A DNA stretch of 58,114 nucleotides, the filler included, from Sphacelaria rigidula (taxonomy: Eukaryota): the NCBI GenBank assembly GCA_964200075.2. It is 6 parts of 6 records of this genome, joined end to end, with 100 filler letters (N's around TTAATTAATTAA, not from the genome) between each part and the next. Parts side by side here need not be neighbours in the genome. Positions count along the whole stretch, not along the records: positions 48,514 to 58,114 come from CAXNAA020008122.1; 5 more parts are not named here. One strand, 5' to 3'. Positions 6,512-58,114 of this stretch are shown here, piece by piece. The position numbers and the translations under genes are program-made. Position 1 is the first letter of the stretch, and the number at the start of each line of letters is the position of its first letter. Under the pieces are notes generated by a model. It was not told the DNA's origin. It made no database searches and was given only the letters and a program-made list of their open reading frames with translations.

Positions 6512-6551
<40 letters not shown>
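6512..6551. repeat. (GT)n microsatellite
   Basis: About 20 GT units. Confidence 0.95.
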
Positions 6552-6553
<2 letters not shown>

Positions 6554-9704: not shown

Positions 9705-9759
9705 GAGAATATACTCGTCTATTACGGTGAACTCTATTGCTACATCAATAGATGCCTTC

Positions 9760-12417: not shown

Positions 12418-12629
12418 GGTACCGATGTCGTAGAACGAGCTAAGAAGGAGGTATGGTAACGATATACAGACAGCACGTATTCGCACTAAATGGTGTGCAA
12501 TAAAATGACAGACACATGCTGCAATCGTGTAGTACAAAGGAGTACGGCATCGGCGGCGAATGCGAAAAGAATCCCAGAAAACAAAAAAGCCCAGGATACA
12601 ATAATGAGAAATACAAAATACGATCGTGG

Positions 12630-12867
12630 AGTTCTAAAACCAAACGGTCACCGCATATATGGTATCCGGCGATGCGGCGCAAGCGAAAACGCAAGGGTGA
12701 CGAACACAATACGATCATATAAAAAGTTAGCAAGGGTGATGAGCATAGGATACAATATTACTGTTCACAAAACCAAACTGTCACCGCAAGGATGTAACCC
12801 CGTGGTGCACGGGTAGCGACAGCATCAGTAAGGTGTGACGCGGATGCAAAGGTCGCCGTGGGAACAA
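12630..12867 (-). repeat. Dispersed repeat (possible LTR fragment); inverted copy at ~17567-17810
   Basis: The reverse complement matches ...cacaccttaccgacgctctcgctgcccgtacaccacagggtttcatccttgcggtgacagtt... at 17600-17670 and beyond. Confidence 0.8.
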
Positions 12868-26080: not shown

Positions 26081-27179
26081 CCCTTTGAGAACCCTCCCGT
26101 CCCGTCCCCGGTCCAGACGCCTCATTATTTCAAGCGCTGACAAAGAAGAAAGTATGGGGAAAGAACATACCGACAACAACCATTTTGACGGCGGGAGGCC
26201 ACAGAAGATTCCGACATGCATACGTCATGCTCCGACCGAAAATATCGCCCCGGTGTGGTCGGATTAGTTTTATCCAGTGAGGGGACGCAACGGGTGAAGT
26301 GTGTTCAACTTTGTGCACACAGCAAGAATCAGCATCGCGGCCTCTGAATTCCATACAACAAAAATCAGCACCACCCGTACATTCTCTTTATATTGAGTCC
26401 GGTGTGGCACTGAGGCACACTTTTTTAACGGCGACGCACCGCACCGGAGTTTTGTCGCGCTGCGGTCCGGAGGTCGTACCCTTCGAACACTTGGCTAGCG
26501 TGCTACAGTAAGCCACATCACAAAGACAAAGTAGTATGGCCGAGCACACAGAAATTCCCTCACCACGCGTGGGAGGATTGAGGTGCGATATTTCCGCGGT
26601 TCATTGCCAGTTGGAGCCGGTCACGCCTTGGGCAAAATAGTGCCGCGTGGAAGCTGCAAACAATCAATCATCCGTCGTTAAAAAAACAGCATCCCGAAAT
26701 CAGCACTTTTCCATCGCCAGTACCAAGACGGTTAATAACAGTCTCCAGTCTAACTTCGACTGGATGAGAGCGGTCACGGAGAACACCACGCGGTGTCTTG
26801 TCCTGTATTTTCCACAGGCGACCGTCAGTGATTCGTTCACCGTCCACGCTTCGTCGCATGACGCATGGCCCTTGTAAACTCGGGCGAGCAATAGGCTCCG
26901 GCGAGCGGTCGTAGGGTCACCATCAGTCACTGTCTCCTTTACACCGCCGCATGCTCGGTGGTGCTAGTACCTATTGTCCGCAGAGACCGCTGTACTGCTG
27001 TATGCAAACTGCCATCTACACCCTACTTATTGTATGCAGACAGTGCAGGCAGTACTGTACTCTCTGCACTGCACGTTATTCCAATCTTTTATTGGTACTA
27101 TACGTACACGGTTGCACATATCCCGCGGCACTGTCAGCCGAAATGTTGTACCGAAATGAGGGGCCCGGTATTCAAAGGG
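26081..27179. mobile_element. Non-autonomous piggyBac-like element (CCCTTT...AAAGGG termini)
   Basis: TCAA|CCCTTTGAGAACC ... GGTATTCAAAGGG|TTGA forms an inverted terminal pair. The first ~450 bp match 51305-51720. An alternative right end GACGG|TTAA lies at 26731. Confidence 0.6.
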
Positions 27180-28510: not shown

Positions 28511-28720
28511 CTGTGTTGTCGTCCCATCTGTTCTGGACGCCAGTCTACACCTTTCGGTATGTTTGGGCGGACGAGCCGGGGTCACACAGGAGGAAGCTCA
28601 ACACAAAAGCTTTTTTATTTTTTATTTGTCCTAGTTTTCCACCTCCCTGCTGCGGTGCTTCTCTTCTTTTTCTTTTATCGACAGAGGGGTTCAGCACTCC
28701 CTTTCCCTCGTTGACCGTGA
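28511..28720 (-). mobile_element. 5'-truncated copy of tRNA-headed SINE family
   Basis: Reverse complement of the 3' part of 39661-40032 (gtcgtcccatct.ttctggacgcc.gtctacacctt.cggtat...cacaggaggaag). Confidence 0.8.
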
Positions 28721-29109
28721 GGTTGAACTCAATTGGAACAGATGATGCCAGCACGAGAAAAGAATACAGAACTGTGAATTGTTGGCTACTTTCTTTGGCG
28801 ACACCATCTTCGCGAGATTATCATTTGTCGCTTCTACCTGTGTTGCTGTGCAGTATGCCGACCTTTAAAGATTGCCCCTCGACAGCTGTTCGGACGCGGG
28901 CACTGCCTAAGACCCACTTTTATGGCAACGAGTCCCGGTTTTTACAAATATGAGGATTTCAGCCCATCTACAGGCGATTTTCTCCCGTGGATTGATTTTT
29001 CGGACCCCANNNNNNNNNNNNNNNNNNNNNNNNNNNNNNNNNNNNNNNNNNNNTTAATTAATTAANNNNNNNNNNNNNNNNNNNNNNNNNNNNNNNNNNN
29101 NNNNNNNNN

Positions 29110-38156: not shown

Positions 38157-39660
38157 CTGTTTTATTGTTGCCCCCCCCCCCCCCCCCCGCCCCCCCCCCC
38201 CCCCCCCCACCACCCCCCGCACCCCGGGCACAACAACACGCCCCACAAACACCACCAACACAAAACAAAACAAACACAACACGGNNNNNNNNNNCCGCGA
38301 GGAGCAAGCTCTGTTTTCACCAACTCCCCCCCTGTCACGCTAGCGGCCCCAACCCCCCCCTGTTTTTTTTTTTCCCCCCCCCCCCCCCCCGCCGCCCCCC
38401 ACCAGTGCAACAAACAGACGGGGAGAACATCAACACACGTGGTAGACACAACACACACAAAACAAAACTTAGACCTTGCGATGTCTGCCAAGAAAGCGGG
38501 GCATTTGATCATGTGATCTAACTTGCTGTACGAGTGGCACAAGGGTAACTGCACACGTTCGAGTGTAGGGTGCACGCCTCCTCGGAGGATCTCTCAACCG
38601 CGGAGCAATGAGGTTCCCGCAAGAGTGATAATCATAAAATAACAGCCGATTTTATATTTTGGGGTTCATACAGAATATGGGGCTGAAGTGGCATATCTCT
38701 CTTGCACGAAANNNNNNNNNNNNNNNNNNNNNNNNNNNNNNNNNNNNNNNNNNNNTTAATTAATTAANNNNNNNNNNNNNNNNNNNNNNNNNNNNNNNNN
38801 NNNNNNNNNNNTCACTGATTGATCGCTTTTCACTCTCAATCGTATCATCTACTCTCAATCTCACGAAAACGCTGTTGCAAGCAAGAAACAAAACAATGAA
38901 CACGCAAAAGCATAGAGCAGTGCTTGCGCCTTGATCGTAAATAATGGTCGAACTTTTGTCGGGATTCTTTATTTTGAAATAAGGTCAATCCTAGCCCTAA
39001 CCCTAGCCCTAACCCTAGCCCTAATCCTAACCCTAATAAAGTATACCGAGAACCCTCCGGTGAGGGGGTTTGCAAAGGGGTGATCCAATCAAAGTGTGCG
39101 CTGGCAGATCTTAACCCTTAGACCGCAAGGGTAGCCCATCTGGACCATGCATACTTTTTTCAAGAGGAATTCATGCCGATTCAACATATGACCAACTCTC
39201 GTTGGTGAGGGTTGAATCAACGCCGGTGGCGCCGATGGGGATGAAAAAGCATTCCGCGCAAGCTGAGAACGCGTGGGACTGTCAGCCCCACTAAAGATCC
39301 GGATCTCGGTGCTGACACTCAAATCAAGTGATATTCCGGGAAAGTTCTTCCTCGACAAATGCGTGAGCTCTTCTGAAACCAAAGAGGAAGCAATGAAGGG
39401 ATAAAATAAGGAAAGGACTGGGGAACATGGACGACGAAAATATGGATCTCATACACGCACCAGTTTTTCTGGACACAAAGATGACCAGCCCCTACCGTAT
39501 GGCCTCGGGTTAGGAGTCCGTACAAGATTGAACAAAACAAAACAAGACAAAATGGAAAATGATGTTATGCTGGTGGACACAGGTGTGCGCCTCCACTGTT
39601 GCGGAACCACATCTGGTTAAACGTGGACGCGTCCAATTTTGGGTATCGATACTTGTATAG

Positions 39661-40032
39661 ACCGGTCGCCCCGGTGGCTCAGTTGGTGACCTCGACACCT
39701 TCTGACGGTGGGATCGCGGGTTCAAATCTTGGAGCGATCTGGGATTTTTTCCCACAACATGCCCAACAGTGAAGAGCGACTACGAGTATGTCGTGGTAAA
39801 ATTCTAAAATGCGCTTGACGGTCGACGAGGGAAAGGGATTGCTGGACCCCTTTCGCAAAAAAAAACAGGCAAGCATCGCAGATGAAAGGTGGAGTACTAA
39901 AAATATACAATGAAAATAAAAACTGCTGTGTTGACCTTCTTCCTGTGTGACCCTACCCCGGCTGGTGCGCCCACATATACCGCAAGGTGTAGACCGGCGT
40001 CCAGAATAGATGGGACGATAACACACACACAT
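39661..40032 (+). mobile_element. tRNA-headed SINE (full-length copy)
   Basis: Pol III A box TGGCTCAGTTGG (39675-39686), B box GGTTCAAATC (39719-39728), unique body and (AC)n tail; three more copies lie in the window. Confidence 0.8.
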
Positions 40033-43000
40033 AGATAGACTTGGTTGCTTGCTCTGGCCACAGTGAAGTAATTCCAAACTAGTAGTAAAGCTAGCTGGTC
40101 AAAGGGTTGAAATAAAGACCGGAGTTGGCTTTTGTTTACTCTCTCGCACCCTCTTCCGTGGTTTTCGCCTGCTCTGTGCCCTGTTACGTATTTCCATGCC
40201 TGCTTTTGTTTTTGTTCCATGTTTTATTTTGCAACGGAAAATGATGAAATTTTCAGGTGTTGGAGACGGGAATGTACGTGGTGCTGATGGCGAATTGCGA
40301 ATCTAGGAATGATAATATTCATATAAACGGACACAGCGAGTGGATGAACCCCTACGGTGAGAGGTATTCCTTACGAGTACGTCATATTTTTTTCTCAGAT
40401 TTCTGTATTTTTTACTTTTCCCGAACATAAAGATTTTGATATTTATTTACTTTTCCCGATTTTTGTTTTTCTTCCCCCACTTCTCCCACAAATAAACGCC
40501 GAAGAAAATTTCGGGAGCTAGATTCTCGGAGAAATCTGTAGTTAGTCTTGAACTGGTCTATTGCCTGACCGACCTGGTTGTGACAAATCTGCTCTCACAT
40601 TTCGTTTTTTTTTTGCCCTGAAAAATCAGAGGAAGACACAAACCCGTTAGTAAGATCCCTGAACCAGATGTCCCACAGTTATGGGGGCGAGTGGGGGGGG
40701 GGGCATAACGACAAAAAAATCGTGCGCAAAAAATGAAAAAAACGCGGAGGAATAATGAAGAATAATGAAGACGTCATCGACTGGCCGGACCTGTGCCGAA
40801 CCTCCCCAGAACCTGTGCCGAACAAGACGCACGCTCCATCCCAGGTTGCCTGGGTTCAGTATGCGACAGCTGTAATGTTTTTCATCGCGTCGTTCTCGAG
40901 ACGGAAGCAAACCGGCCCGTGGTACTTCACAGCGCCCCGCACACACACTAGACCTAGTCACTCGCCCGGCGGATGGGCTCAATTCGCCACGGTGAACTCG
41001 AAAAGCCCCAAGACGTTGAAGGGAATCCATTTTGCAGTACATTATGTGTTTGGTGCAGCGGTTTGCAGAGTGCTGCGGCCTCTGTGGCACGTGTGACCTA
41101 AATCCGCCCCGCGAGTGACCAGGTCTGGTGTGTGGGAGCGCACAGATCAAGCCGCACATTCCAATCCTTCGCTTTGTTGCCGAGAGAAACGCGTTGAAAG
41201 ATCCGCACATCAACATACTGCAACAAGAGGGGTACAACAACCAACACGATCAGCAGTTTCTATCTTCCTGCTGTTGTGACCCTGTGTACAGGTGTACAGC
41301 AACGTCAGTCACAGGTTTGATGCAGAATGTACTAAAATAATAGTACACTGCATATGAGCGAGGTCGTTGTTTGGAGGTGTTGCGTGTATTTGTGATCCAT
41401 ATGACGGCTCGATCACGAGCCAGTTTCTCTGCAGAGAGGGATCAGAGTCCATTTCCCCGATATGTAGTCCCCAAAATCGGTCCCCATTCATCCCTACAAC
41501 ACTGCCAATCCTTCAACTTGTCGTACATGCGTGGCAGGCAGGCAACCCAGCTCCTTCGTGTGCGCAGATTGATTTTCTTTGTAGATATATACTCCTCAGA
41601 CAGCACAGTATCGCAAACATTGTTCGCAATATAAAATATAACGGTGAGTACTGTAATATTTGTAGTGACTGCAGAATGTGTCGTCCTCAAAGCCATGAAC
41701 ATGATGAACTTCACCGTCTGTATATATATGTAAAACGAACTAAATTGAATTGTTCCTCAGGTTCGGCTCTGATTGTGTCGTGTTGTGTGGTAAGTTTTTG
41801 CATGTGCCCCTGTCAACGAGTCATGTAAGTTCCCCTTAGAGGTGTCCGGAAATCCCCTTTCAAAAGGGGACATCAAAATTATGTTTCTGCACTTCCTGAA
41901 GTCCACTTCAAAAAGGGGATTTCTCGGTACGTTTTGGGGATTTCTGATGAAATTGGTATCGAAGCGACCAATCAGCGATCTTTTTTTCACTAAGAAGATT
42001 TTGGAAAAGGGGAAACCCGTACTCGATAACAAGGGTCTTAAGGCCAACTCTTACGGGAGCGTTTAGAATTTTACTTTGCAATAATTTTAAACGTTTTTCT
42101 TTTTCTTCTTTGCCGTGGTTGTGTATTTTGTGCCCGTTCACCATGATGACAAAGAAAAAAAACTCTTCTGAAACTGTTGCAAAATATAATTTCAAACGCT
42201 CCCATAAGAGTTGGCCTAACCAACTGAGGTTTATTACTTGATTAAACCAACAAATGATCATGATCAATGGGTGATTTGGAAAGTGTCAGCAAGTGTCTGC
42301 AGTGAGAGATATTCCGGACACGTGCCCCCCCTCCCCCCTGTCGAAGGGCACTTGTCGAGAAATGTAATGATTTTTGTGATTAATTTTGTTGAATATATTG
42401 TGAAAGAAATTGATCAAGAAACACGGACAAGAAACGAAAAGTCTGGTGGGCTTTGCGACGTTCGTATATTTACTTCTGCTCCCTGCCTGCTCTGTCACGA
42501 TGACCTCGGATGCTGGTCATGCTCACAAGCATGTATGCACACGAGCGCTCGGTGGTGACAACCAGTAGCCAAAGTAGCCACGATAACTCGCGCTGTGCCA
42601 AACTTGCCCGGGCTGTTGATAGGTGCTCGACGCACTCGACACGGAACCGGTGCCCTGCAAGCAGTATTCCAAGACACCCTATACCCTTGACATGAAAAAT
42701 GAACAATGCCATCGTCAAGGCATAATCGGTTGTATTTCCACCTTGACCGTTGTCAAGTGAGAGACTACACTCCGATGCGAAATTGCCGGTGGCGGGTCCA
42801 GTACATGCACCGCGACATACCGCGCTAATCATGGTGTAGAGTTGCGTGTAACCCTGAGCGTACTGCTTTGCTGCTGTGCCGTGTCTTGTGCGGTCTGCTG
42901 TGTGCTACTACTGCCATATGTGTGGACAATACTGTGTGGATCTGCTGTAGCCGTTTATCCTCGGCTTGAGTAAGTCCATCATTTTCTCCCGCACGCCGCA

Positions 43001-43598
43001 GGCACAAAAATAGCGTTACATGACGGCAACACTTTTGTCTGTCTCTGGAAGTGGTGATACCACAGAATAAAGCAACTCAATGTAGGCTGTCATCCAAATG
43101 AAAGATAATCAGTAGGCCTCGGGCCGAACAATCTTGGCAAGATGCAGCTCACCCTTCATGCGACTCGCCGAACACACCACGGCGCTTCGTAGATACAACT
43201 TATCAACCCTTCTTTGATAGTTGGTGTGCAACCCTAATACGCATAACTTGCGCGTTTTCTTTTTCGGTCTTCCGCACCAAAATCAAGTAGTTGTAACGCC
43301 TCGGCGGGGTTTTCATTTCAAAATGACAAAATGACCGCTTTTGAACTAGACACATATTTGTTTTTGGAAAAAAAACGCAGAAGAAACAAAAGCCTCGCGT
43401 GTCTCAGCGAACCTCCGATGGGGAAAAATGGGAAATCTGATAGATTGTGACCTCGAATAGATGGTCCAAGGCACGCCTTCAGGTACATGAGAGACGGGGC
43501 GCCGTTCTACTCGGTTTGGTCCTTGCTTCTTCGGGATAGGCTCTCCATGGTCGTGACGCTGTCGGATTGGCGCCAACATTGCCAGGCCTCATATCTTC

Positions 43599-43786
43599 CT
43601 TCGTAGTGATTACAGCTAGCCGTAGGGTTGGCAGTCCCTATCTGCTTCTACTCATGAACTATGACAAATGTTAGGGTCATTTTTGTTTTTCGTCATTTTG
43701 CTCAAAACCTCAACGCGTGCGAGACCTGTGCCGTTGATACCTGCAGCACTGCTGCCACGCGCGTCAGCCGTAGCTCACCACCAGCC
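43599..43786 (+). repeat. Dispersed repeat, second copy ~47110-47300 (the latter followed by an AT-rich microsatellite tail)
   Basis: cttcgtagtg...tagccgt.gggttgg.agtcc.tatctg ... tcagccgt.gctcaccaccag is shared. Confidence 0.75.
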
Positions 43787-44947
43787 CTATTCATTAATAG
43801 CGCATGATCTCTCCGCTCCATACAAAGACCAGTACATTCAAGTCCGGTTTTTCCATACTTTATCCAAGTATTTTTTCCCAATTCGGAACAAAATGTTACA
43901 CCAGACCCTCAAAGTGAAGAGGAGGAAACTGTCACGCTTCTCTATCGTCCTGCAGAAGCACGCTGGAAGATAATCCGTGACGAACGGTCACGTTGCATGT
44001 CCGCCCGTACAATCTGAAAACCCCCTAGTCTGGGGTCTACCTATACTACTCACTCACGCATCCATGCACAGCAATTCAGTGTTTTTTTAGCGCCAAGAAC
44101 CACCGCCACCTACCCTGCACATCCATCGGCCAATAACGGGGGGCCCAAAGTACGTGCGCTGCTAGAACGCAGTGTAATGTGTGCTCTCCGCCCTCACTTA
44201 TCTATCGAACTGCACTGTGTACTAGTAGTACGGTTGAATATTGAGCTCTATACTCTCTCGTATATATGTTACGCTGGGCACTTAATGTAGTACACACCAC
44301 CCCCGGAACAAAAATATGCACCCATGTAAGTAGGACGATCCACGACTCCCTCTTGAGCAAATTTTGTTGCGCAAACACGGCCGGCCCTCATCCAACACCT
44401 CACGGATTGCCGTAAAACATGTTAGGAGTACTGTGTATAGACTTGCAATAGCTAGCACCAAGCGTGCTGGACATATGCTTCGGATCCGTGCGTGTTTGCT
44501 CGGGTTGGGCTCTCAAGGTGTAACGTGGTTCAGTCATGTGGTTTAGTAACGCCTGTTGAGATTTCCTGACCTATCCCACATGAATTTATGTCAAACGAAG
44601 GCTGCTGTGTGTACATTACATAGCAAGGGCTGCCGCTAATGCGCTTTGACTAGCTAGGAAATGCAACCACATGCACGCGTCTGTGCGTGTTTTTTCAGGG
44701 CTCGGTGTGTACGTGCTGTGTTGCCGCCTCGCGTCTCCCGTACCGTACACACGTTTCAGTGATAACTGATGCACATGCTGTGCAGTGTAAAATCAAGATA
44801 ATAGCGGAGCAACTGTCCACCGCCACAGACCAACATGTATAGTTGGCTTGTATGCTTCACTATCGAAGCCTCAAAGCTACCATTCTGCTTCACTGGACCT
44901 CGAAATCCGCTGAGGGCCGTGCTGTTGGGCAATGCCTGCCCTGCGAC

Positions 44948-45097
44948 CGCTGGAGTGTCACTGCTTGCCGTTGGGCTCTGAGTGGTGTTCATGCCACCGC
45001 CGACTGGCCACTGCTTGCCGTTGGTCAGTGAGTGATATTCATGTCACCTCTGGAGTGCCACTGCTTGCCGTTGGGCAGTGAGTGATGTTCATGCCAC
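44948..45097. repeat. 50-bp minisatellite, three copies
   Basis: The core cactgcttgccgttgg....tgagtg.t.ttcatg.cac recurs at a 50-bp period. Confidence 0.9.
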
Positions 45098-45371
45098 TTT
45101 TGAATTGATTCCGACTAAGACCCCCCTACCCCCGACACCAAACCCCTCTGTCTACCCTTATTTTTCATTCGCTTCAATTGAGAACGGCGGGTTGGTCGGG
45201 CGACTCCTTCGAGGGGCCGACTTTAACACCCCAGTTGTCCTCGGTAACGTGTGCGATTCGAGCGCTATTTTTCAGGGATATACACGTCACACACATGACA
45301 CGTTTGAAAAAACCGGGAAAAACGCAATTTTGGGCCAGTTAACGCTTCGTAAGGTTTGATATTTTGAACTA

Positions 45372-45588
45372 GACAGATGTAACGTAGCGTGATGTAACGT
45401 GTAGGCCTTGAAGCAGTGTCTCTTTCAATTTTCCAGATGTGATTTTTTTTTTTTTAATTTTCAACGTGACACGTGACACTTTTTTAATTCACGAAAAAAA
45501 GCACAGTTTTCGTCACATTTGGAAAGTGAGACGCTGTTAAGGTTCATGCGAAGGACCACACGTTACATCACGCTACGTTACATTTGTC
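45372..45588. repeat. Inverted repeat (MITE-like interior)
   Basis: tgtaacgtagcgtgatgtaacgtgt pairs with acacgttacatcacgctacgttaca. Confidence 0.8.
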
Positions 45589-47886
45589 CCATCGAAAAGA
45601 ATCAAACCTGACGTAGCCGAAATGACCCAAGGTCACGTTTTTTCGAGTGTCACGTAAAAGCCTCACGTGTAACGTGTATACCCATGCTATTTTTCGAGTC
45701 GTGCGCTTCGAAATTGAATGCATAGGGTTGAATTTGCTTTTCAGCGCACGCCCCGCACTCAGCAAAACAATCGGGGGATTACTCTTTCTTGCAGGTTTTG
45801 AGGGTACGCTTGAAAAACACTTGGAAAAACACATTCACACCTGGGATGTATCAGCGTTGTGGATGTGTACGTGGCGTCTGAACAGGGAGCGTTGCCTCGC
45901 AACAGGTTCACAGGATGACACTCCAGGGACATCTGGAGGTTCCCAGGGGGAAGAGGGGTGGTTTTTGACCAGGGGTGGGGGAGACGACCTAAAGAAAAGT
46001 TCGTAAACAATGGTTGGTACTATTGAGGTGCCGCCAACCCTAACTCTAACCCTGACCCTGACCCCCCGACCAAGGCATACCAAGAACCGTTGGGCAAGGG
46101 AGATGCAGAGTGCTTCCCAAGCGAAGTGTGCCTTGCGAGACCTCAAATCAGCACCTGCGGCGCCGATTTTGGACGAAAACACGTTCTGGACGAGCTGGGT
46201 CTACTGCTCAGCTGCCCCAAACCATGAGTTCTATCAGAACTGACATAAGTGAAATCAAGTGCTAACCATCGTTTACGAACGTATCTTGAGGTCTACTGGG
46301 GTGGGGGCCTGTTCGCCGTACAGCCGAAAAGCTCACCATGTCAACCATGTGTATTTCGAAATTTACCTCGATTTTTTTTAAATGGAACGAGTCCCTACAG
46401 GAGCTGATTGACCATTCTGACCAATCACGGCTTCGTATCAAAATGGTCACTTTGTTCCCCTACAGGGTAACTACTTTGATGTCTAGCTGTATTCATGATG
46501 GTCATGGCAGTTCAACCATTGATTGCATGGGCACAAATAGCATGTGCTTTATACTCTGCTCGTGGTTTGCGCCGCCTTTCCGACGCCTCACGTATGCCAG
46601 CACAGCTTCGTGCTGCCTGTAGCGTCGTTGTGGAACACTAAGCAGAGACATCAGCAGCATGCAGCGGACTGTGCCCAGTGCAGAGCGATCGCACGGTCAT
46701 TGTTTCTTGCCGTTGTATCCAGCGAAGACATACAGCATACACACTGACTCTGCACGCGGTGTTCTTCAAGGTCAAAACCGGTCAGGGTTTTTTCGGGACT
46801 CTTTTCTATGCAAATGCCCAGCATCCACCTGTTGATAAAAAAGACGACTTGTATAGCGAGAAAAAAACTGTTCAGATCCCGAAGCATGGCATTGTCCATC
46901 TGACTCCATCTGAGAAGGGTTCGCAGTCTTGAGGCTAACGTACGGTTTCTCCATTTCGAGGATGTTGTCCAAAATCAAGTGTATCCAAGTAAACGAAGAA
47001 AAGTGGAGGATGATCGGTGAAGTGTCGTCGAACAGCTCGGACATTTTTCGAAGGCTAACCCCCCCCCCCCCCTCCCGCTAGCACCCCCAGCGGCCAGGTT
47101 TACTTGATTCCTTCGTAGTGGTGACGGTTAGCCGTGGGGTTGGAAGTCCTTATCTGGTTAATATAAAAAATGATACTGTAGTCTAAGTCAGGGCCATTTT
47201 TTTTGTTTCGCCATTTTGTTGACCTTCACGCATGCGACACCCGTTGCGTCGATATCTGCGGCCCTCCTGCCGCGCGCATCAGCCGTGGCTCACCACCAGT
47301 CATTATTGTTTTTACTATTACTACTATTACTATTACTATCATTATTATTTTTATATTTATTTTTATTTTATTTTTATTTTATTTTTAATGTTGTTTATTT
47401 TATTTGATCTATCATGAGTCGCAAAATATTGACACTGTTTTTTGTTTTTGTTCTTGTTGTTTTTGTTCAATCATACATTATCTCATCTTTATTTTTTTGT
47501 TTTAATTTTTCCGCACATTTACCCAATCTCCCGAAAACGTGGTCACACGTCTATCGTGCCTTATTGACCCTCTTCGAAAAAAATATACCAATGCTGTTCG
47601 CTTCTGCTATGCTCCCCCTTCCCGTTTTCTGTCCTCCCTTTTTTTTTTTCGTCTTCACGGGGGAAACAAAAACTCGACATTTATTCAGGCTACTTGCCCG
47701 GAGAGGTCTACGGATGCCTGCCGTTTTTCTTTTTCTTGGCCGTGGTCTACCTCGTCCTGGGCGTTGTGTGGATGGTTATGTGCATGACCTACATCAAGGC
47801 AAGACAACGAGTGAATTCGCAGAGGAATAGGAATTGATGTTGATGGTGATTACTTGTTACGTCTGCGGGAAATTTTGAATTTTCAA

Positions 47887-48245
47887 ACCGGTCGCCCCGG
47901 TGGCTCAGTTGGTAACCTCGAAACCTTCTGACGGTGTGGTCGTGGGTTCAATTCTCAAAGTGATGTGGGATTTTTTCTCACAACATGCCCAACAGCGGAG
48001 AGCGACGATGCCGTGGGTACACAAATTTCGCAAACGATCGACGAGGGAAAGGTACTGGTGGTCCCTCTCGCGATGAAAAATAAAAGGCAGGCACCGCAGA
48101 AGGAAGGTGGGGTACTAAGAAACAAATAAAAAAGAAAAACTCCTGTGTTGACCTTCCTCCTGTGTTACCCCGGCTGGTGCGCCCACATATCCCGAAAGGT
48201 GTAGACTGGCATCCAGAATAGATGGGACGACAACACACACACACA
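47887..48245 (+). mobile_element. tRNA-headed SINE (full-length copy)
   Basis: accggtcgccccggtggctcagttggt...gggttcaattc...ccagaatagatgggacgacaacacacac, colinear with 39661-40032. Confidence 0.8.
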
Positions 48246-48869
48246 TTCAAAGGCGATAGTTACTATAGGTACGATGATGATTCTACTCACTACTTTTTTT
48301 TTTGTTCATGATTCAGGGGTGGCCGAAAAAAGAACGCATGACGCCCTCCCCCCCCCCCCCCCCCCCCCCTGAGAGGACGCGGATCTTCTTTCTTTTCCTA
48401 AAAAGAGGAATGTNNNNNNNNNNNNNNNNNNNNNNNNNNNNNNNNNNNNNNNNNNNNTTAATTAATTAANNNNNNNNNNNNNNNNNNNNNNNNNNNNNNN
48501 NNNNNNNNNNNNNGAAGATTTTAATCCTCCGGGTTCTCATCCTCACTCAAAAGCACCATCCTCAACATATATGATTGGCTGTTATATGTTGGGCCTTGAA
48601 GTACGACCGTCTCCAATCGACGCCGCGGATGAATTATTATTTCCTTACAATTCCTCCGTAATATTGAAAAGGAACGACACTGAGTTGAATTTTGCATATC
48701 AGACCGAGAAAGAAGTTCGATAAATATTCTTGGAAAATCACCTGTCGAGCATTGAGTTGAATTTTGTGTACGCACGACTCACGACACTGTCGCCCACGAC
48801 TGACCCCAGATGGCTCCGAGAGTAGAATCCACGACACTGATCAGGGAGCGCGTTGTATGGACACGGATT

Positions 48870-48992
48870 TGGAAAAAAGCGGGAGCGATAAAATCGGGGG
48901 ATCACGAGATCGGAACGGTTTCCCCCGATTTTTTCTCGAAAAAAAATCGATGGAAATTTTTCCGATCTCGTGACTCCCGCCGCTTTTTTCTA
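48870..48992. repeat. Imperfect hairpin element
   Basis: gaaaaaagcgg...tcacgagatcggaa pairs with ttccgatctcgtga...ccgcttttttc. Confidence 0.65.
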
Positions 48993-51092
48993 GGTGACGT
49001 ACGTGCATTGAAGTACAATACTGGAGTGCGAGGCGTTTGATATTTTTGCAACAGCAGCAGAAAACAGCCTCGTAACACCACGGGGCGTGCTTTTCTCCCG
49101 CCCCAGCTGCTCGAGCAACTTCGCACGGGGTTTGACGAACGGATAACGAGTGCTCACGCCATACCCTGCGGCGATGGCGATATTTTTTGCCGCGCTGCGC
49201 TGCCGTATGTATCACTACAACAAACGCCATTTGGACTTGGCCATCTCTGGCTGTTGTCGCTGTACTTGGGGGTGATGTACAGCACTGTTGTAAAAAACTT
49301 TGCCTGCGCACTGTTTGTTCTCTGCTCTCGCAATACCGGCTGTGCCATTATGTACGACCACACGGCATCATCTACTATACCGATGTAGTATATACCTACA
49401 TCTATATAATAACGTCCTGCACTGTATCGCTCTAGGGTACCAAGGTTCGACACTGTACTCGAAGGATTGTTTACCACCCGCCTGCTCTCCGGCCTAGCAC
49501 AAGTACGCAGTACCACTCTCATTGAGAAAACGATCGTCTGTGTACAAAACCCATTCGCAAATCCGTGATACTGTACTGCCTGCACCACGAGACGGTCACT
49601 CCGATTTCGAGTCCATGAATTTGAGTCCCCCCGATTTTTGGGGATCCAAAAAATCGGGATGCGCAATAATAGTGGGTCCAACTCGATAAAACGTCGAGAG
49701 AAATCTCTCGTACGTGCGTTGGAGTATACTCATTTACCCGGATATGGTGTGCAACCGACGTGATTACCTCAGAGCGTGTCATGTAAAAATACGCTCTGGA
49801 CGAGCCGGATATACATACTGCCCACCTACAAATCATGAGCTTTCTTGGATTTTTTCAGTCTGAAATCAAGTGAAATCTAGTACCAAATGTTGATGTACAT
49901 TTCTCAAGGTCTACTGCTTGCCGATGGTACACGCGGAAGCCAGTGAAGAGCGGATAAACTGAAGAAAACTATTTTTTTCTTCCATTTGTAGCACCCTCAT
50001 CTTCCGAATTTTCAAGTTCGAGGAGGACAGGAGCTTTCGTATGAAGTCATGCAGAATAAACAACAAGCTTTCTTGGTATTTGCGGAGTATCGTACACGCC
50101 CCCCCCCACGGCTGGTGAGGGGGGCCCGCCGGAGGCAAGAATATTATGCCATTTGGCTTCACATCTCTTCAAAATCGCGGTGAATTCTAGCTGCCTACCG
50201 CCAGCAATTTGAGCACTTGATCAGTGCACAAGAGTGTACATGCATGGGAAGAAGAAAAATGTCACTGAACTTTTAGACTTGAATTAATAAAAAAGCGGTG
50301 AGACAGTAGTGCAGCATACATGGCGTTTCGCGTGTATCACCCAAGCGCCAGGAACTACTGGTGGCACGACAACTCGGTAACATTTTCCAGTGTGACATCG
50401 TCAATTCACAACTGATTGGAAATAAGAGCACCCCTGCCTGAAGTTGTGGGCTCCTCCATATGACGTCGTTCTCGCTCCCCTCGTCGCTGCTGCTGCTGCT
50501 ACTACTCCTGGTTCTCATATTAGAATATATTGTCTGTGGTATTCGTGTTCACTTCTAGGTATAAGCGATGTGCGGTCATTTTGCCGCCTCTTTAACAGCA
50601 TCCCCACGGTCATTGTAGTACGATAATACTTGGGAAATATTGGAATGAGTATGACTCATATTTACACAGAACGCTTTGGAGTATGATACATATGTCGGGT
50701 GACATGAGTGGTGTAACTGGTGACGAAACCGGTCAGTTGTTGCACCAGTCAACTGTAACCGACCAGTTGAACTGGCAGCCAGTTCCCAACTGTGGGATTT
50801 TGGCACGATTTCCCCATGTTTCTTGCGCTAACTTTACTTTTCGCGGGATTCCGTTTTTTTCAGGAGTCCCATGAATCTCAGAGTTCTCGGGTGGAAAGTG
50901 CGTGTTTTTGTAGAATCTGTTCCGCCTTCAAATTTGACGTGGTACGCCTGCAAAGTAATTTTTTGCGTCGTCTCCCTCTTGAATCAGCCTGTATTTGTCC
51001 ACTTTTGCTTTGAATGGTCTCACCTATCCTCGGGCAACAGGCTTTTCACCTCAGTTGCCTCATGTTGTGATTCGTGTGTTATTTCATTCCAG

Positions 51093-51242
51093 ATGAAAGG
51101 AAGCCTAGAATGTGGGCGCGCCACGAGAATGGACGGTGTGTTCGAGGGAAAACTCACTTCAGTCGGCAGCATCAGCATTGGGCCTACGGGGAAGGTCGTG
51201 GGCAACTTGAAGGGACTCGAATTCTTGAAAGTGGAAGGCCAG
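51093..51242 (+). CDS. Bactofilin (polymer-forming cytoskeletal) domain protein, exon A
   Basis: ttcattccAG|ATG...CAG|GTGATG; 150 nt encoding MKGSLECGRATRMDGVFEGKLTSVGSISIGPTGKVVGNLKGLEFLKVEGQ, with the bactofilin RIDGxxEGxI...IGxxGxVxGxI...VEG pattern. Confidence 0.85.
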
Positions 51243-51304
51243 GTGATGACCATTATATCCGTGCATTCATGGCTGTTGCTATTTCGCCGTGATATGTCCA
51301 TTAA

Positions 51305-51750
51305 CCCTTTGAGAAACCTTTTTCCCTCCCGGTCCAGACGCCTCATTATTTCAAGCGCTGACAAATAAGGAAAATACCGACAACAACCTTTTTGACGGTC
51401 GAGAGCCACAGAAGAATCCACCGACATCGTCATGCTTGCACCAAAAATGTCGCCCCGGTGCGGTCGGATTAGTTTGATCGAATGAGGGGACGCAACTTGT
51501 CAAGATGCTCAACCATGGGCACACAGCAAAAACCAGCACCGCGGCCTCCGAATATCGTATAAGAGAAACCAGCACCACCTGGAAATTTTCCATGTATGCA
51601 GTCCCGTGTGGTACTGCAGCACAAATTGATGACGGAATTTCTGGAGTCCTTTTTTGCTGCAGTCCGGAGGTCGTACCGCCCAACGCTTGGCAAGCGTGCT
51701 TAGCCACATCACTCGACATTGGCACTTTTCCATTTCCATTACCAAAAGGG
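51305..51750. mobile_element. Non-autonomous piggyBac-like element inside the bactofilin intron
   Basis: TTAA|CCCTTTG ... CAAAAGGG|TTGA; homologous to the element starting at 26081. Confidence 0.65.
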
Positions 51751-53010
51751 TTGACCAACATGAAGCTCTAGATGGCTGACAAATACGAGAACGGTCACGC
51801 ATTTGACCTGAACCTGCACCACGCATGTGATATAAGAAGATGCACGAAAATAAGTAAGGTTCTAGAGTTTCCGTGGATCTTTCCTTCATGAAGAATGGCA
51901 CATTGGAAACCGTATGCGCGCCTGTTGCTCAATCATCGTTGGTGCGCCTACTCGTGGAATCAAGGCGCCCTTTCGGCCTGGTCATTTCGAAGTACCGTGA
52001 AATGTGTAAGATAGAGTGGTACCCATAGATGGTTCTGACATTCTTGGCAGTCAAAATCGAAAGTCTATGGAATCGTGGCAAGAGTTCGATGCACCAGCGG
52101 TCATGATTTGTAGATGCCTCCTTTTTGCCATTCCGTCGGTACTAAAGCGTCAAGTGTGTCCTCGATTTGGTCCTCGACCTGCACTCCTGCTCTGTTACTT
52201 CACGCATCCCGAACGACTCAGCAAGAATGTATACGAAGCCGGCCTCGTTGATGTGCCACAGGTGTCCTCGACGGGCGCTCAATATTAAAGGTATTTTCCC
52301 CAAGCACCAACAACTCCTTACATGGGCCGTAACCCATGTGACTGTCCTTACTGCCTGAGCGTGCTTCACGCTAATGAAAACGGGTGTGGATGTGATGGCG
52401 TCAACTTGCAGAATGCAACTTTCCCCCACGTTCTGACTTGAAGCATGGCGTTCTGGTTCTCGATATTCTGGAGGGAAAGGAATGAAAGGTTTCGTGTGGG
52501 GTCTAAAAAACTCTCATCAGCCGAAGTTTTTGAGAAGGCTGCAAAGCAAGTCGGCAACACTTTCATGCTCAGTGCGAATTTTCTGCGACGGTTCCAGCCG
52601 ATGGTACTGTCATCCAACTCCACACCGTGAACAACAATGATGAAGTTTCATACGTTTATTTTTTTGTTGCTAAAATTTGCCATGGATTGGTGTGAAAAAA
52701 ACACTACAGTGTAGTTCGAACTTGGGTGCATCAATAGTGTCATATTTTGTCATGCAGGCCGTTACATTTTGCCGGACTCATGATGTCCACAGTTGAAGAC
52801 ACCACTTCTCAGGACGACCCCTTCATGTGTGCCCCGAGCAAACTTGTGTCCGGTATCAAGAACCAGAACACGGGTGCAATGGTCCTGTCTCGGAATTCGA
52901 GCCCACATTGTCGGAATGAGCATTTGACCATTGCCCCCCCTCCTTCGTTCTCCGTTTTGCCCGTTTTCTGTCGCCCACGACCTGTCCTCTTGTCGACGTG
53001 CGCCCTGTAG

Positions 53011-53106
53011 GTGATTGGCGATATCGTGTGCAACACGGTGATGGTGGTGAACCGAGGCAAGGTCCTCGGGGATATTACAGCCGTCAACCTAACAATCGGA
53101 CCCAAG
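53011..53106 (+). CDS. Bactofilin domain protein, exon B
   Basis: Pyrimidine tract plus ctgtAG|GTG...AAG|GTGATG; 96 nt encoding VIGDIVCNTVMVVNRGKVLGDITAVNLTIGPK, which continues the beta-helix pattern in phase 0. Confidence 0.85.
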
Positions 53107-53405
53107 GTGATGAAGTATTTCCCATTCCACAATAGTATAATCATGTGTTTTAGAGTGCTGGAAGAACTTGGGACAGATCCAACGTTTTTCATTCGCTTCG
53201 AACCCGAGGCTATCAGCATGTCCCACCATCCTTGGTGTTTGTCGACCGCGACGAAGGCTTTCGCTTGAGACGGTTAGCACCTCTTGGATGTAGTTTCTCG
53301 CCCGCGAGAACATTGATACGGGACACTTTANNNNNNNNTTTGTATTTTTTTTTTTTTTTTTTCTTGCTCACAAAATTTTTTTTTTTTTAAAAGAAAAAAA
53401 CGCCA

Positions 53406-53437
<32 letters not shown>

Positions 53438-53765
53438 AGGTGCCTGGTTCGGGGGGACAAAATCCTCACATGAATCGAAATGGGAAAAGCTGAGCACAAC
53501 GAGCAGCTGGGAATTCCAACGCTTGGGTTCGTTCTCGCCAATGCCGCCCCTATGAGGCGCTTAGTGCAGCCTGAACCCATACATTAGGCGCTGTATTGCC
53601 ATTTTTTTCGTGACACTTTTGGGCTGGTTCTGGGGGGTTCCATCGTAGAAGGTGTCACCGTTGACATGACGTTGCAGAATTTCGCCCCCCAGCTTCCATG
53701 CATGCGAAAATGCCCATCCGCATTTCCCCGCCATCTACCGACACACTGTATGCGCTTCTCATCAG

Positions 53766-54230
53766 ACTGTAATTCGTGGGATGCTGAACGTGGTGGAAAG
53801 CGCCGATGACCTCATGGACCTCGTGAAGCAAGCATCTGAGGAAGTCAACACCGAAAATCCATCGGATGACGCAGAGTCCGCGAAGGATAAAGTGGAAATT
53901 CCTGGAGACGCTGACACATCCATCACCACGATAGGGTCTTCGGCAATGCCAGAGAGCCCCGAGCCTCGCGATGAGTCGGAACGGGCCAGCGACGTCCGAT
54001 TGTCGATGTACCAGGATGACGTTTCCAAGGATTCTGTGGGAACCGCGTCTGAAACTGACGCCGCTTCAGAGAACGATGGCCATTCGGATTCCCCCTCCGT
54101 CAAAGCCGGTTCTTCCGCTTCGTTGTCGATTAGCGAGAACAGCGACGTCGTCCGAGGTGATTCCGACGCCCTTGCTTCCAAGCTTGGTCAAAGTGTGGTG
54201 GAGGGAGAGACGCATTTACGTGCTGAGTGA
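53766..54230 (+). CDS. Bactofilin domain protein, exon C (domain end plus acidic Ser/Asp/Glu-rich tail)
   Basis: ttctcatcAG|ACT GTA ATT CGT GGG ATG gives TVIRGMLNV, which completes the domain. About 145 aa of acidic low-complexity sequence follow to TGA at 54228-54230. A possible donor GTGAGG at 54227 means the gene may continue. Confidence 0.75.
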   Translation, partial: TVIRGMLNVVESADDLMDLVKQASEEVNTENPSDDAESAKDKVEIPGDADTSITTIGSSAMPESPEPRDESERASDVRLSMYQDDVSKDSVGTASETDAASENDGHSDSPSVKAGSSASLSISENSDVVRGDSDALASKLGQSVVEGETHLRAE

Positions 54231-55570
54231 GGTACAATTACTGGCTTCCGCAGGAGCGCCTAGTGGAGATGATGCCTTGTAAATTGCGTCACGGTTCCAC
54301 TTGTGTTCGTTTGCCGGTGACACCAATTCAAGCGTTGCACGATCGTTGATATATTCTTTCGCAATCCCCATGTGTTTGGCATGTGACGATTGCTGCCTGT
54401 TTGTGCTGGCTTTTTCTTGTAATGCCATTTAATCCGGCATTGTTGTGCTGTGCTTGTTTGTGAAAGTAGAACTGTTGCTCTGCCTTTTGGATATTAGCTA
54501 CCCGCTGATCGCCCCTTGCGAATGAAGACTCCCGGTTCATTTTTCTCCTTGGAGTTTTCTAGTGTGGAGCGGTTGAGCAATGATTTCTCACTACGTGCGC
54601 GGAGCCTCGCGGCACGGGTTATGGTTTTCGTTTTAGAATCTCTGTCGGCGAGTAAGCTGTGCTTTTGTTTCCTATCGTTACTATGTATGGATATACTGAG
54701 ATGAGACCGTGCACACCGGTGAACATATACGGTTGGAACAGCCGCGATTGGTGGTACTTTTTGTTGCGATTGAAGAATATGATCAAAAATCGCCTTACCC
54801 TGGGTCTAATTTTACCCTGACCACGCCGATGAGTTTTCAGGTCTCATACTCTATTACAAGTAGTCGTGTTTCATGTAACCTGGTTTTCCGTCAGAGTCTG
54901 ATGTCTACGCTCCCAGGTGATTGTATGCTTGACCTGCATTCATGTGTGCTAATAGTTGGCACGTGGTGTACATCGTAAGAGGTGGGAAAATGAGTCGCTT
55001 ATCCGACTCTCAGCGTGATTTGCTGGGTGCTTGCGTGGCGCCTGTGTATTTTGACTGAGGAACGATCCCGTGTCACAGTTGTTTCGTCTCCCCATGAGTT
55101 CGAGAGTGTTGGGGTTTTGCTGATGATTTCGTCTCCTCTGGAGTGCTTTGTTTCACGTCATTTTTATAGTTCCGATATTTATTTACTGTGAACAGCGGAA
55201 TGATCTTGTGGCAAATTTCGCTCGTACGGGAGTTTCATAGTCTTGTTTTTCCGTTGTAGCTTCTTACAAGGCTTCTTTGAAATTGCATTTTTGACGTTCA
55301 CTCCGTGGACTGTCATGTCTTGAGTGTTGAGTGATCGCGATACGTGCTGGCCGTGTTTTCATATCCGTATCTCCCCTCTAGTTTGGTACACATTGACGTG
55401 TCTCGTTCGTTTGGATCTTGACACGAAAATACACTTAATGAGTATTATTACATGTCTGACTGCGCACTCTGTGCGAGAATGCCATCCATTTACCCCGGAT
55501 TTCTCAAGTTGAGGTAAGCGAGTCTCTTTCCTCGCCCGTCGTGCCCGTACGTGTCCCGCCACCTCCTGAA

Positions 55571-55891
55571 TGTGTGTTGTGTCGTCGTCCCTTCTATTCT
55601 GGACGCCGGTCTACACGTTTCGGTACATGTGAGCGCAGCAGCCGGGGTCACACAGGAGGAAGGTTAAGGCAGGGGCTTTTTCTTTTTTATTGTTTCTAGT
55701 ACCCCAGCTTCCTTCTGCGGTGCCTGCCTTTTCATTTTGTCTCGAAGAGGGTTCAGCTGTCCCCTTCCCTCATCACTCTCTACTGTTGGGCATGGTGTCC
55801 GGAAAAATCCCAGTTCACTCCGAGAATTGAACCCACGACCCTACTATCACAAGGTTTCGAGGTTACCATTTGACCCACCGGGGCGACCGGT
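55571..55891 (-). mobile_element. tRNA-headed SINE (diverged copy)
   Basis: The reverse complement begins accggtcgccccggtgggtcaaatggtaacctcgaaacctt and ends ccagaatagaagggacgacgacacaacacac. Confidence 0.78.
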
Positions 55892-56747
55892 GACGAATAG
55901 AGGACCAAGAAGCAGCTGACTACCTCTTTACCCCCCACCACCGCCACATCTAACCTTCCAACCCTTTCAGTTTCCGTGTTGAATATGGATACAAATAATG
56001 TGTGCTGTGTAGTTGAGGATAGTTAGCTTGCTGATGAGAGACACTTTCGTCGTACGAACAAGCGGGTCAGTGTTGGTTCCATCTCTCGCTACGAACGTGA
56101 ATCGATCGCTCCTCTGCATCCTTATGTCCAGTCCTCCGAGATTCGGGTTGCATAGCAAGCCCCATATACTTGGGCTCCAAAAAAAAAGTGACAGAAACAA
56201 AACATCCACCCCCAATCGTGGCATTGCTCCATGACAGGACCACCACTACGTCCTTGAACCGTATATTGTGGCGAACAGATTTTTGGCCCCACAGATTGTT
56301 AACTTCTAGGACGTTTGCTCCACTTTTTTTACCCCAAAACAGAAAAAGTCGCCGACACGTCTCGGACACTGCATCCCACAAGAGGAGGCTAGCCCACTTT
56401 TTAGGTTCGCTTGACAAGGTTTCAAGATTGGCCGTTGAACAATACTTTCTTAGCAAAGATTTGTGCTTTCCAACATACGGCAGTTTTCCCAAAAGTCTGT
56501 GGCGCTCGCCGTGGATATTAACGACACGGATTATTACTGAGCGGCCACTCTCCTCGAAACCTTTGGGCCAAGCGAATCTGAGAAGACAAGTGGGCTGGGC
56601 TCCTCTCTGCGAGGTGATGAAAGTGTTGGAGACGTGTGTTGGCGATTTTCCCTGTTTTGGGGGTCAAAAGAGGGCTCAAACGTCCCAACAGAGAATAATC
56701 CGTGGGCCAAAAACGTGTGCCACATCATCCGGCCTTATTCGGCCTCA

Positions 56748-57194
56748 AACACGGGATCTTACAAATTATTGGTGATGGATCTTTTATTGGGGATTAGAAA
56801 CCAGGAGAACTAAAATCTTCGTATCCATACCAAATCTTCGAAATATGGATCCATTCTTTTACCCACTGATAACTATCGACAACAGCTACACGCCACACAA
56901 ATTTGGATTTCGATCACCGAAATTTTGGGGTTCTACGTGAAGAACCAATTCTAGGAAATTCCGGGTGTCCGAGCGGACACTACAGTGGTTCCGAAATTAA
57001 TTTTTCACCTAGAACCCCAACATTCCGGTGATCGAAATCCAATTTTTCATGGCGTACAGCTGTTGTCCATAGCTATCAGTATGTGAAAAAATGGAACAAT
57101 ATTTCGAAGAGTTGGTGTGGGTACGAAGATTTAAGTTCTCCGGGTTTCTCATCCCCAATAAAAGATCCATCCCCAATTTGTAAGATCCCGTGTT
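56748..57194. repeat. ~447-bp foldback palindrome (MITE-like)
   Basis: aacacgggatcttacaaatt...gatggatcttttattgggga... pairs with ...tccccaataaaagatccatc...aatttgtaagatcccgtgtt; the arms pair for ~200 bp around a short loop. Confidence 0.92.
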
Positions 57195-57240
57195 CTTAGC
57201 TTCGTATGCGCGCACAAGGTTTAGGTTATTTTGGAGAGAC

Positions 57241-57288
<48 letters not shown>
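57241..57288. repeat. (GTT)n microsatellite
   Basis: About 15 GTT units. Confidence 0.95.
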
Positions 57289-58114
57289 CTTTACATTAAA
57301 AAGCCGTTCCGGTATCTGCGCAGTGCTGTACTGGGCATCTGACTCGGATGTCTTCCGTGGTCACAGACTACCACCCCATGTCAGGGTAAAAGGAAAATCA
57401 GGAAGTAAAATCGGACTCACGAAAAATTGACACAGACAGACGCGATACAAGAAAAACGAAGCAAAAACAAGAAAAAAAAGGTGAAAAGAAACAGAAGAAA
57501 GAAGGAACCTATCCTTGGACCTCTGAGAGGACAGCTATACGTATGCATAAACTAGGCAAACTAGAAATAAGGGCGCCACGTGCCACCGCCCACCACCTCG
57601 GAGGGAGGGGTGCATCGGAGTCAGCAGTTAGTAGCGTCCATCCTCTCCCTACTCTCCTTGAGACNNNNNNNNNNTTGAGACTCCCGTTTCAGTGCACGTA
57701 GTCAGCTGGCCTCTTTTTCGGTCCTGTGCCAAGATGTGATGAAACTCTCCGCTGCCTGTAATAATAGAGATTAGGACTTGAAATAAGTTTTTTTTTTACA
57801 AGTTTCGGGCGAGCTTAAAATTTTTGACGAGCTTTTGATGTTCTTGAAATGAGCATGTAATTGCGATAATATTTTGGGCGCCTCCGCCAGTCATTGCAAC
57901 CGCTGTCTGAAAGTTCCCCAAATAGCCTATGGCGTGAGTCGTCACCCGTCACCAGACTGGTTTCAATACGCCAAACTGCCACGGTTGCGGGTCTGACCGA
58001 GAAACGTTCAATGATCGAAGAAATGCCATAGAGGGAAATGTACCAATTAAGATACGCGTAAGGCACCTGGCGGGAAAAACTCTATAATATCTTGGGACCC
58101 ATGGCACGTCAAAC

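Follow-up and report, generated by a model that had tools for sequence, protein, structure and literature searches.

The window analysed here is a stretch of 58,114 nucleotides (nt) from the genome of Sphacelaria rigidula (GenBank assembly GCA_964200075.2) that joins six parts of six records, the last of which (positions 48,514 to 58,114) derives from CAXNAA020008122.1. Within this part, the region from 51093 to 54230 very probably represents a nuclear gene of algal, most likely ochrophyte (heterokont), origin that is split by spliceosomal introns, is present as a spliced transcript-like contig and encodes a member of the bactofilin family PF04519. The exons found supply about 5.5 of the approximately six windings of a right-handed beta-helix and, in addition, a long acidic tail.

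Structure and splicing of the bactofilin gene

The exons and introns of the gene are compiled in Table 1 along with other features of the window. A preliminary description of the locus, made from the sequence alone, had reported three exons with canonical GT-AG sites that are joined in phase 0. This structure can be read directly from the DNA, and in-silico splicing resulted in 711 nt, a multiple of three, encoding 236 amino acids (aa) with a single terminal stop codon, which are identical to the peptide given in that description. The GC content at third codon positions is 0.62 in the coding sequence versus 0.48-0.49 in the introns.

Fourteen sequencing runs matching positions 53766-54600 were listed, of which 12 contain all or part and nine at least half of the words of this region. 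Contigs were compared on positions 48514-56000 for the runs X1 and X7, which belong to two studies of one organism, and for X10 and X11 from two other organisms. Contigs of both X1 and X7 skip from 51240 to 53009 and from 53104 to 53764, with each joint marked by a cut of +2. Accordingly, the junctions are located at 51242/53011 and 53106/53766 with GT..AG ends, and the two splice junctions predicted beforehand thus occur in contigs of both runs and hence of both studies. The depth of the spliced contigs amounts to 540 and 634.5 in X1 and to 319.1 in X7, and the same runs also contain low-depth contigs (depth 2-13) of intron sequence. Record 20 of X7 (2027 nt) extends from position 55488 back across exons 3, 2 and 1 to position 51092 and continues for 57 letters beyond. 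The runs X10 and X11 yielded repeat matches plus one short 3' piece each and nothing else. Additionally, the heptamer GTGATGA was observed to open both confirmed introns (51243-51249 and 53107-53113); it occurs 11 times on the plus strand of the window.

Table 1. Features of the bactofilin locus and of the remaining window (UTR, untranslated region).
Feature	Position	Strand	Remarks
Exon 1, coding, 50 codons	51093..51242	+	Pfam profile positions 9-56; donor GTGATGA directly 3'
Intron 1, 1768 nt, GT..AG, phase 0	51243..53010	+	Joint in one contig each of X1 and X7; donor GTGATGA
Exon 2, coding, 32 codons	53011..53106	+	Further bactofilin windings; AG before, donor GTGATGA after
Intron 2, 659 nt, GT..AG, phase 0	53107..53765	+	Joint in X1 and X7 contigs
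Exon 3, last coding exon	53766..54230	+	Final winding (~9 codons) and 145-aa acidic Ser-rich tail; AG before; stop TGA 54228-54230
3' UTR, at least 1.15-1.26 kb	54231..55488	+	Unbroken contigs from 53764 to 55378 (X1 record 7) and to 55488 (X7 record 20)
AG acceptor of a further intron upstream	51091..51092	+	Polypyrimidine tract and CAG immediately 5' of 51093
Dispersed repeat (~400 nt) in intron 1	51303..51712	.	74.6% identity over 444 columns to 26079-26521
Weak candidate first coding exon, ATG plus 22 codons	906..971	+	Donor 972 (GTCGCC) or in-frame 966 (GTGAGG)

Membership in the bactofilin family

Pfam was run on the exon queries separately (four queries), with matches listed to E<=10. 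Exon 1 alone (50 aa) matched PF04519 with 28.3 bits versus a cut-off of 27.9 bits (E 2.1e-6, profile positions 9-56 of 98), and none of the four queries returned a family other than PF04519 at E<=10. With the same exon, the Thermus bactofilin 6RIA was detected among the sequences of solved structures (E 0.0024), and an exhaustive HMMER search of 1.84 billion cluster representatives yielded 56 matches at E<=0.001, eight of which reached E<=1e-10. The ten homologues that were tested in Pfam all belong to PF04519, with 60.8-93.2 bits over profile positions 1-97. Full-length homologues can be aligned to the spliced protein nearly without gaps through both exon junctions. The identity over the 91-residue domain amounts to 30-39 residues (33-43%) for 14 eukaryote-type proteins, and in bacterial-type proteins 28-35 of 89-90 domain residues are identical.

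Moreover, a custom profile was built from 32 homologues, on which the spliced domain scored 105.1 bits in one contiguous stretch. Exon 1 alone obtained 64.6 bits, a score that is partly circular since the homologues in the profile had been found with exon 1; the ~40 bits contributed by exons 2 and 3 are free of this circularity. Omission of exon 2 lowered the score to 60.6 bits, a wrong order of the exons split the match, and the best of 500 shuffles reached 10.1 bits. In the spliced protein the profile match carries on unbroken through exon 2, and the known exons cover positions 9 to ~97 of the bactofilin profile (1-98). The bactofilin assignment made in the preliminary description is therefore supported by profile searches at two levels, namely by exon 1 above the PF04519 cut-off and by the spliced domain on the custom profile.

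Predicted fold of the protein

Exon 1, used with a 36-row alignment, and the homologue P0017 served as proxies for the structure. The AlphaFold2 model of exon 1 displays six strands with a mean predicted local distance difference test score (pLDDT) of 91.3. Comparison with 48161 chains by means of VIA-align placed the Thermus bactofilin 6ria_A first, with a root mean square deviation (rmsd) of 1.1 Å over 50 of 50 residues (chain residues 21-70, 26% identity) and a Z of 7.1, which is middling, since 7-8 is a common best value for this tool. The second best chain was BacA of Caulobacter crescentus (2n3d; Z 5.3, 1.2 Å, 48 residues), and the next row had a Z of 4.6. The first match spans the full model, is separated from the rows that follow and is consistent with the match by sequence. 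The homologue P0017, which is 40% identical and has the same plan of helix and acidic tail, was modelled with a pLDDT >90 across residues 37-135; its top three Foldseek matches were 6rib, 6ria and 2n3d with template modelling (TM) scores by target of 0.85-0.92. For the window protein, the bactofilin fold is apparent in the predicted model of the first three windings.

A left-handed hexapeptide-repeat protein of the acyltransferase or gamma-carbonic-anhydrase type, which would show a comparable short periodicity of glycine, valine and isoleucine, is excluded, with next to no probability left, since left-handed acyltransferases superpose on the exon-1 model with an rmsd of ~7.5 Å in contrast to 1.1-1.2 Å for bactofilins, gamma-carbonic anhydrases match P0017 with E ~1 and TM 0.11-0.20, and Pfam returned no hexapeptide family at E<=10; the right-handed beta-helix that had been proposed from the periodicity of the peptide is thus retained.

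Relatives of the gene and phylogenetic position

The full-length homologues with source names originate from Chrysoparadoxa australica, Pylaiella littoralis, Choristocarpus tenellus, Heterosigma akashiwo and Paraphysomonas (an MMETSP transcript, taxon 36769), all five of which are ochrophyte stramenopiles. Several JGI homologues carry the label 'CcmA (bactofilin family)'. A tree was calculated by FastTree from 94 columns and 31 rows, comprising the window protein and 30 full-length matches of one exon-1 search. The 26 matches left out are 22 fragments, the long repeat proteins P0029 and P0031 (E ~1e-4), which were treated as spurious, the truncated near-duplicate P0041 and P0055 with a truncated annotation; the oomycete protein PiBac and the brown-algal protein D7G0L1, both introduced below, are outside the tree. 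The window protein groups with stramenopile sequences and not with bacterial ones. Its grouping with Pylaiella received a support of 0.68 (Shimodaira-Hasegawa-like), which rises to 0.85 at the node that includes Chrysoparadoxa, and the eukaryote-type clade was supported with 0.74, or 0.96 with P0034 added. Three proteins (P0034, P0038 and P0045) adjoin the eukaryote-type clade, and the N-terminus of P0038 resembles the bacterial membrane-targeting peptide; these proteins may stand for the bacterial lineage that is closest to the donor.

The closest relatives (P0002-P0011 and others) are short open reading frames (ORFs) on genomic contigs with 54-76% identity in exon 1, each of them ending where exon 1 ends. 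The sequence P0001 shows 100% protein identity over exon 1 but only 13 of 29 identical residues in the in-frame upstream stretch, as is expected for a conserved exon within diverged intron sequence. Among the 16 candidates that a word-index search gave for longer proteins with exon 1 as query, P0001 was the sole match. No full-length member of the subgroup to which the window protein belongs was returned from a collection of ~15 billion proteins with one representative per 50%-identity cluster. A metagenome scan yielded one locus (L001) with 38% identity, and a viral scan with P0017 gave no match.

Several of the related sequences deviate in their architecture. In the Pylaiella-type fragments P0033, P0042, P0044, P0049, P0051 and P0052 the exon starts ~10 codons and ends 6 codons earlier than exon 1, which suggests that two bactofilin gene types with distinct intron positions are present among these algae. 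The record P0055 (C. tenellus CAM9468924.1) ends a few residues past the equivalent of the exon-1 end, where it appears to read into an intron, and it probably misses the remainder of the bactofilin domain. The N-termini of P0025, P0030, P0050 and P0054 consist of a proline run followed by basic residues and may represent a common motif for targeting or binding, in place of the membrane peptide of bacterial proteins. In P0061 (411 aa) the bactofilin domain is followed by ~290 residues without a Pfam match at E<=0.001, and this protein may be a fused form. The unrelated P0064 (945 aa) occurs in the 90% cluster of the 55-aa fragment P0002, a clustering oddity.

Comparison with known bactofilins

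The eukaryotic bactofilins described by Deng et al. 2019 (bioRxiv 10.1101/617639) include stramenopile subclades, the brown-algal Ectocarpus protein D7G0L1 and proteins of ascomycetes. The preliminary description, according to which eukaryotic homologues are reported only sparsely and notably from oomycetes, was too narrow in this respect. A stramenopile cluster with a brown-algal member has already been reported by Deng et al. 2019, so the window gene is a further member, and their eukaryotic list or tree may already contain this species or subgroup. The additions made by the present locus are modest and consist of a verified gene model plus a subgroup without annotation. Bactofilins are furthermore mentioned in a paper on halofilin (PMC11459167) and have been reported in giant viruses (PMC12192438).

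The only eukaryotic member for which filaments have been shown in the literature searched is PiBac of Phytophthora infestans (PITG_07992, UniProt D0N980), which forms them in vitro, is attributed by the authors to horizontal transfer from bacteria and has messenger RNA before and during spore formation (Deng et al. 2019, 10.1101/617639). According to the same report, expression of the candidates from brown algae and fungi was not achieved. PiBac and the window gene are both nuclear genes of stramenopiles and both encode a PF04519 domain, but PiBac comes from an oomycete whereas the window gene is algal; the two were set side by side by description only. In our searches of the literature, the work of Deng et al. 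2019 was the only functional study of a eukaryotic bactofilin.

The ochrophyte bactofilins of P. littoralis (CAM9496010.1, P0048), C. australica (CAM9882534.1, P0012), H. akashiwo (CAM9781373.1, P0054) and C. tenellus (P0055) contain the same domain, with a modest identity of 41-43% to the window protein over 91 residues (37-39/91). They consist of an N-terminal tail, the helix and a long low-complexity C-terminal tail; the window protein likewise has the helix and a long C-terminal tail, although the tails are unrelated in sequence. With respect to bacterial proteins, the fold of exon 1 is shared with TtBac of Thermus thermophilus (6RIA, 6RIB) and with BacA of C. crescentus (2N3D). The helices of bactofilins assemble end to end, without a nucleotide, into non-polar filaments, and the bacterial proteins bind membranes via a short N-terminal peptide and have variable flanking tails (10.1101/617639, PMC12448750). 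TtBac differs from the window protein in being bacterial, with 123 aa, short tails, membrane binding by the N-terminal tail and no long acidic tail. BacA has the N-terminal membrane-targeting peptide MFSKQAKS (PMC12448750), whereas the eukaryote-type homologues start with long tails rich in proline and basic residues. A membrane-targeting peptide was visible in the bacterial-type matches and not in the eukaryote-type homologues. Charge substitutions in the last winding have served as non-polymerising controls for TtBac (F105R) and BacA (F130R).

The 5' part of the gene

According to the preliminary description, the first winding and the N-terminus should be encoded by an upstream exon, and the data point in this direction. 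The transcript contig runs 57 nt past the AG acceptor, and the Pfam match begins at profile position 9, in comparison with positions 1-2 in all full-length homologues; likewise, exon 1 aligns to 6RIA from residue 21 (to 70). In two of the ten subgroup relatives (P0010 and P0011) the first residue of the exon is leucine and not methionine, and in all six related ORF fragments that show it, the residue upstream of the exon is glutamine (CAG read through). Since the contig extends beyond the acceptor, the profile match starts at position 9 and the relatives reveal the same exon edge, coding sequence very probably continues upstream, and the first half-winding along with the N-terminal tail is expected in at least one further upstream exon. 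This exon was not located by motif, matrix and donor-type scans of the window, and the 57 extra 5' letters of X7 record 20 do not lie contiguously on positions 48514-51091.

A weak candidate was found at 906-971. Joined to the domain, it adds 13.8 bits and represents the best of 2127 GT sites (mean 3.1, standard deviation 2.2), with the next sites at 12.5 bits. In a matrix scan of 3214 GT sites, position 971 was on top with a score of 12.2, yet seven of 70203 window positions score at least as high, so ~0.3 chance matches are expected among the 3214 GT sites. The last ten residues of the candidate fit the first strand of the family, and a good GTGAGG donor is located 6 nt earlier. As first exon it would imply an intron of 50 kb, and protein searches that covered near-length and shorter proteins revealed no relatives of the ORF around it. 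An assignment of 906-971 as the missing first exon is therefore best regarded as doubtful. Other candidates were rejected: a regular expression of the first-strand motif gave three upstream matches, of which the sole GT-flanked one (26841) is unconvincing; positions 35770-35811 scored 14.8 but have no donor; and the site at 47959 has a GTGATG donor, but its frame contains no ATG and by eye it looks like a tRNA-derived repeat. A scan for the donor type of this gene found nothing better than 965/971.

The three exons might also encode no more than the C-terminus of a far larger protein, perhaps one with several domains, a view that fits the extension of the transcript contig 5' of 51092, the N-terminal extensions of the homologues, which range from ~30 to 380 residues (~385 in P0055 of Choristocarpus), and the additional C-terminal residues of P0061. 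The known upstream transcript, however, comprises 57 nt only, no second Pfam domain occurs in the ten homologues tested, and their N-terminal parts resemble low-complexity tails, so that we consider a much larger protein rather unlikely.

The acidic tail and the possible formation of filaments

The tail comprises residues 92-236, and with 145 aa and an isoelectric point of 4.05 it agrees with the S/D/E-rich tail of ~145 aa described previously. It contains 27 serine, 19 aspartate and 16 glutamate residues, has a net charge of -24 and includes seven Ser/Thr-x-x-Asp/Glu sites, as against one in the domain. No Pfam family was detected in the tail, which is presumably disordered.

By analogy with the family, the algal bactofilin helices would stack end to end into a nucleotide-independent filament, from which the acidic serine-rich tails would project, giving it a charged surface on which partners, cations or regulatory phosphorylation could act. 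Targeting would probably differ from that of bacterial bactofilins, because the eukaryote-type homologues have no bacterial membrane peptide. Polymerisation of the window protein is, on the same analogy, probable. Alternatively, the protein may keep the bactofilin fold but have lost polymerisation; its beta-helix, as a monomer or in a capped form, would then be a scaffold for the acidic tail or have another role. In favour of this view, PiBac is the only eukaryotic bactofilin for which polymerisation has been shown, expression of the brown-algal and fungal candidates failed (Deng et al. 2019), the known exons do not include the first winding, and the window protein lacks a motif that is found after the last winding in ten of the 14 aligned eukaryote-type homologues. 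On the other hand, the entire helix is conserved at the family level, including the glycine pattern, and end-to-end stacking is the sole function known for this fold in the sources used; a protein that has lost polymerisation is accordingly given a minor share of the probability.

Evaluation of the gene model

Several points weigh against the interpretation of the locus as a gene for an algal filament protein. The N-terminus and profile positions 1-8 are absent from the known exons, and the protein is thus incomplete. The margin of exon 1 over the Pfam cut-off is only 0.4 bits, exon 2 alone stays under the threshold of PF04519 (14.6 bits, E 0.041), and for the 50-residue model of exon 1 Foldseek returned nothing at E<=0.001 and listed 28 rows without a bactofilin; to these are added the middling Z and the partial circularity of the exon-1 score noted above. 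None of the runs is recorded as RNA, a source that is only guessed at for several of them, and the evidence for splicing consists of assembled contigs. Finally, polymerisation, the role of the tail and the cellular function are what we infer.

With the nature of the runs and the lack of a start codon in the gene model, it is conceivable that the spliced contigs originate from a processed DNA copy or from a transcribed pseudogene without a protein product. This is very unlikely in view of the 236-codon frame, which is intact across both joints, and of the exon-1 protein, which is kept in at least ten related contigs (54-76%) and in P0001 (100%) while the flanks have diverged. Moreover, low-depth intron contigs in the same runs are expected of RNA with traces of precursor or DNA. 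Bacterial contamination of the assembly, which might come to mind for a mainly bacterial family, is refuted by the spliced contigs and has a negligible probability, as two spliceosomal introns are both removed in contigs, the repeats of the introns have further copies in the window and reach very high depths in the runs, the 3' UTR exceeds 1.1 kb and the nearest full-length relatives are eukaryotic. The view of the locus as a eukaryotic, intron-bearing gene, put forward in the preliminary description, is consequently upheld by introns that are spliced in contigs of two runs and by named homologues from five ochrophyte algae. The argument made there from host repeats in the introns also holds, since dispersed or high-copy repeats are present in both of them, although the term miniature inverted-repeat transposable element (MITE) is unsupported: the repeat in intron 1 has no terminal inverted repeats common to its two copies.

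Repeats and surroundings of the locus

The only inverted repeat around the repeat of intron 1 (51294-51310 / 51745-51761, 76% complementary) is located outside the part common to both copies, and no inverted repeat was found in intron 2. The latter intron contains a gap of 8 N (53331-53338), long homopolymer runs and a very high-copy repeat; depth bins of 53264-53763 range from 5567 to 17458 versus 319-634 on the exons, i.e. 10-50 times higher. Beside the gap, at 53339-53444, there are long poly-T, poly-C (~25) and poly-A runs where reads seem to be cut, so the assembly of this part of intron 2 is doubtful.

The locus is repeat-rich and otherwise empty. In Pfam, none of 20 further long ORFs from the window matched a family above threshold, and Rfam and ARAGORN yielded no match on positions 48514-57664. 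One repeat family is present on both sides of the gene, oppositely oriented (47887-48249, minus strand; 55567-55891, plus strand), and occurs additionally at 39661-40032 (minus) and 28512-28709 (plus). It attains a run depth of up to 41197-55622, is also present in X10 contigs and has an end at 47887-47960 that is tRNA-like by eye; it may represent a tRNA-derived short interspersed nuclear element (SINE). Paired blocks of 44 N with 12 letters between them recur every 9702-9703 bases (9605-9704, 19308-19407, 29010-29109, 38712-38811 and 48414-48513), and blocks of 10 N are located at 5716, 28462, 38285 and 57665. This pattern looks like an artefact of masking or scaffolding and not like biology.

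Implications for bactofilins in algae

Bactofilins are one of the few cytoskeletal families that are regarded as bacterial, and eukaryotic copies have been known since 2019. In the literature searched, no function is assigned to the eukaryotic bactofilins, and only the oomycete one has been shown to polymerise. The locus described here provides an algal copy with a verified gene model (both splice junctions, the stop codon and a long 3' UTR) that is intron-bearing and conserved, and it points to a subgroup that is present in protein catalogues as fragments only. A clean design of constructs will be feasible once the 5' exon has been found; the locus by itself does not reveal the role of these filaments. 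It is a speculative and rather improbable reading that the window gene and about ten relatives constitute a separate algal lineage, with an exon pattern of its own (introns directly before the residue encoded at 51093 and after 51242) and an acidic Ser/Asp/Glu tail, that builds a genuine nucleotide-independent filament. If true, a photosynthetic eukaryote would possess an extra cytoskeletal element of bacterial derivation that might serve, for example, in the formation of spores or of the flagellar apparatus, or in the patterning of the cortex or the wall.

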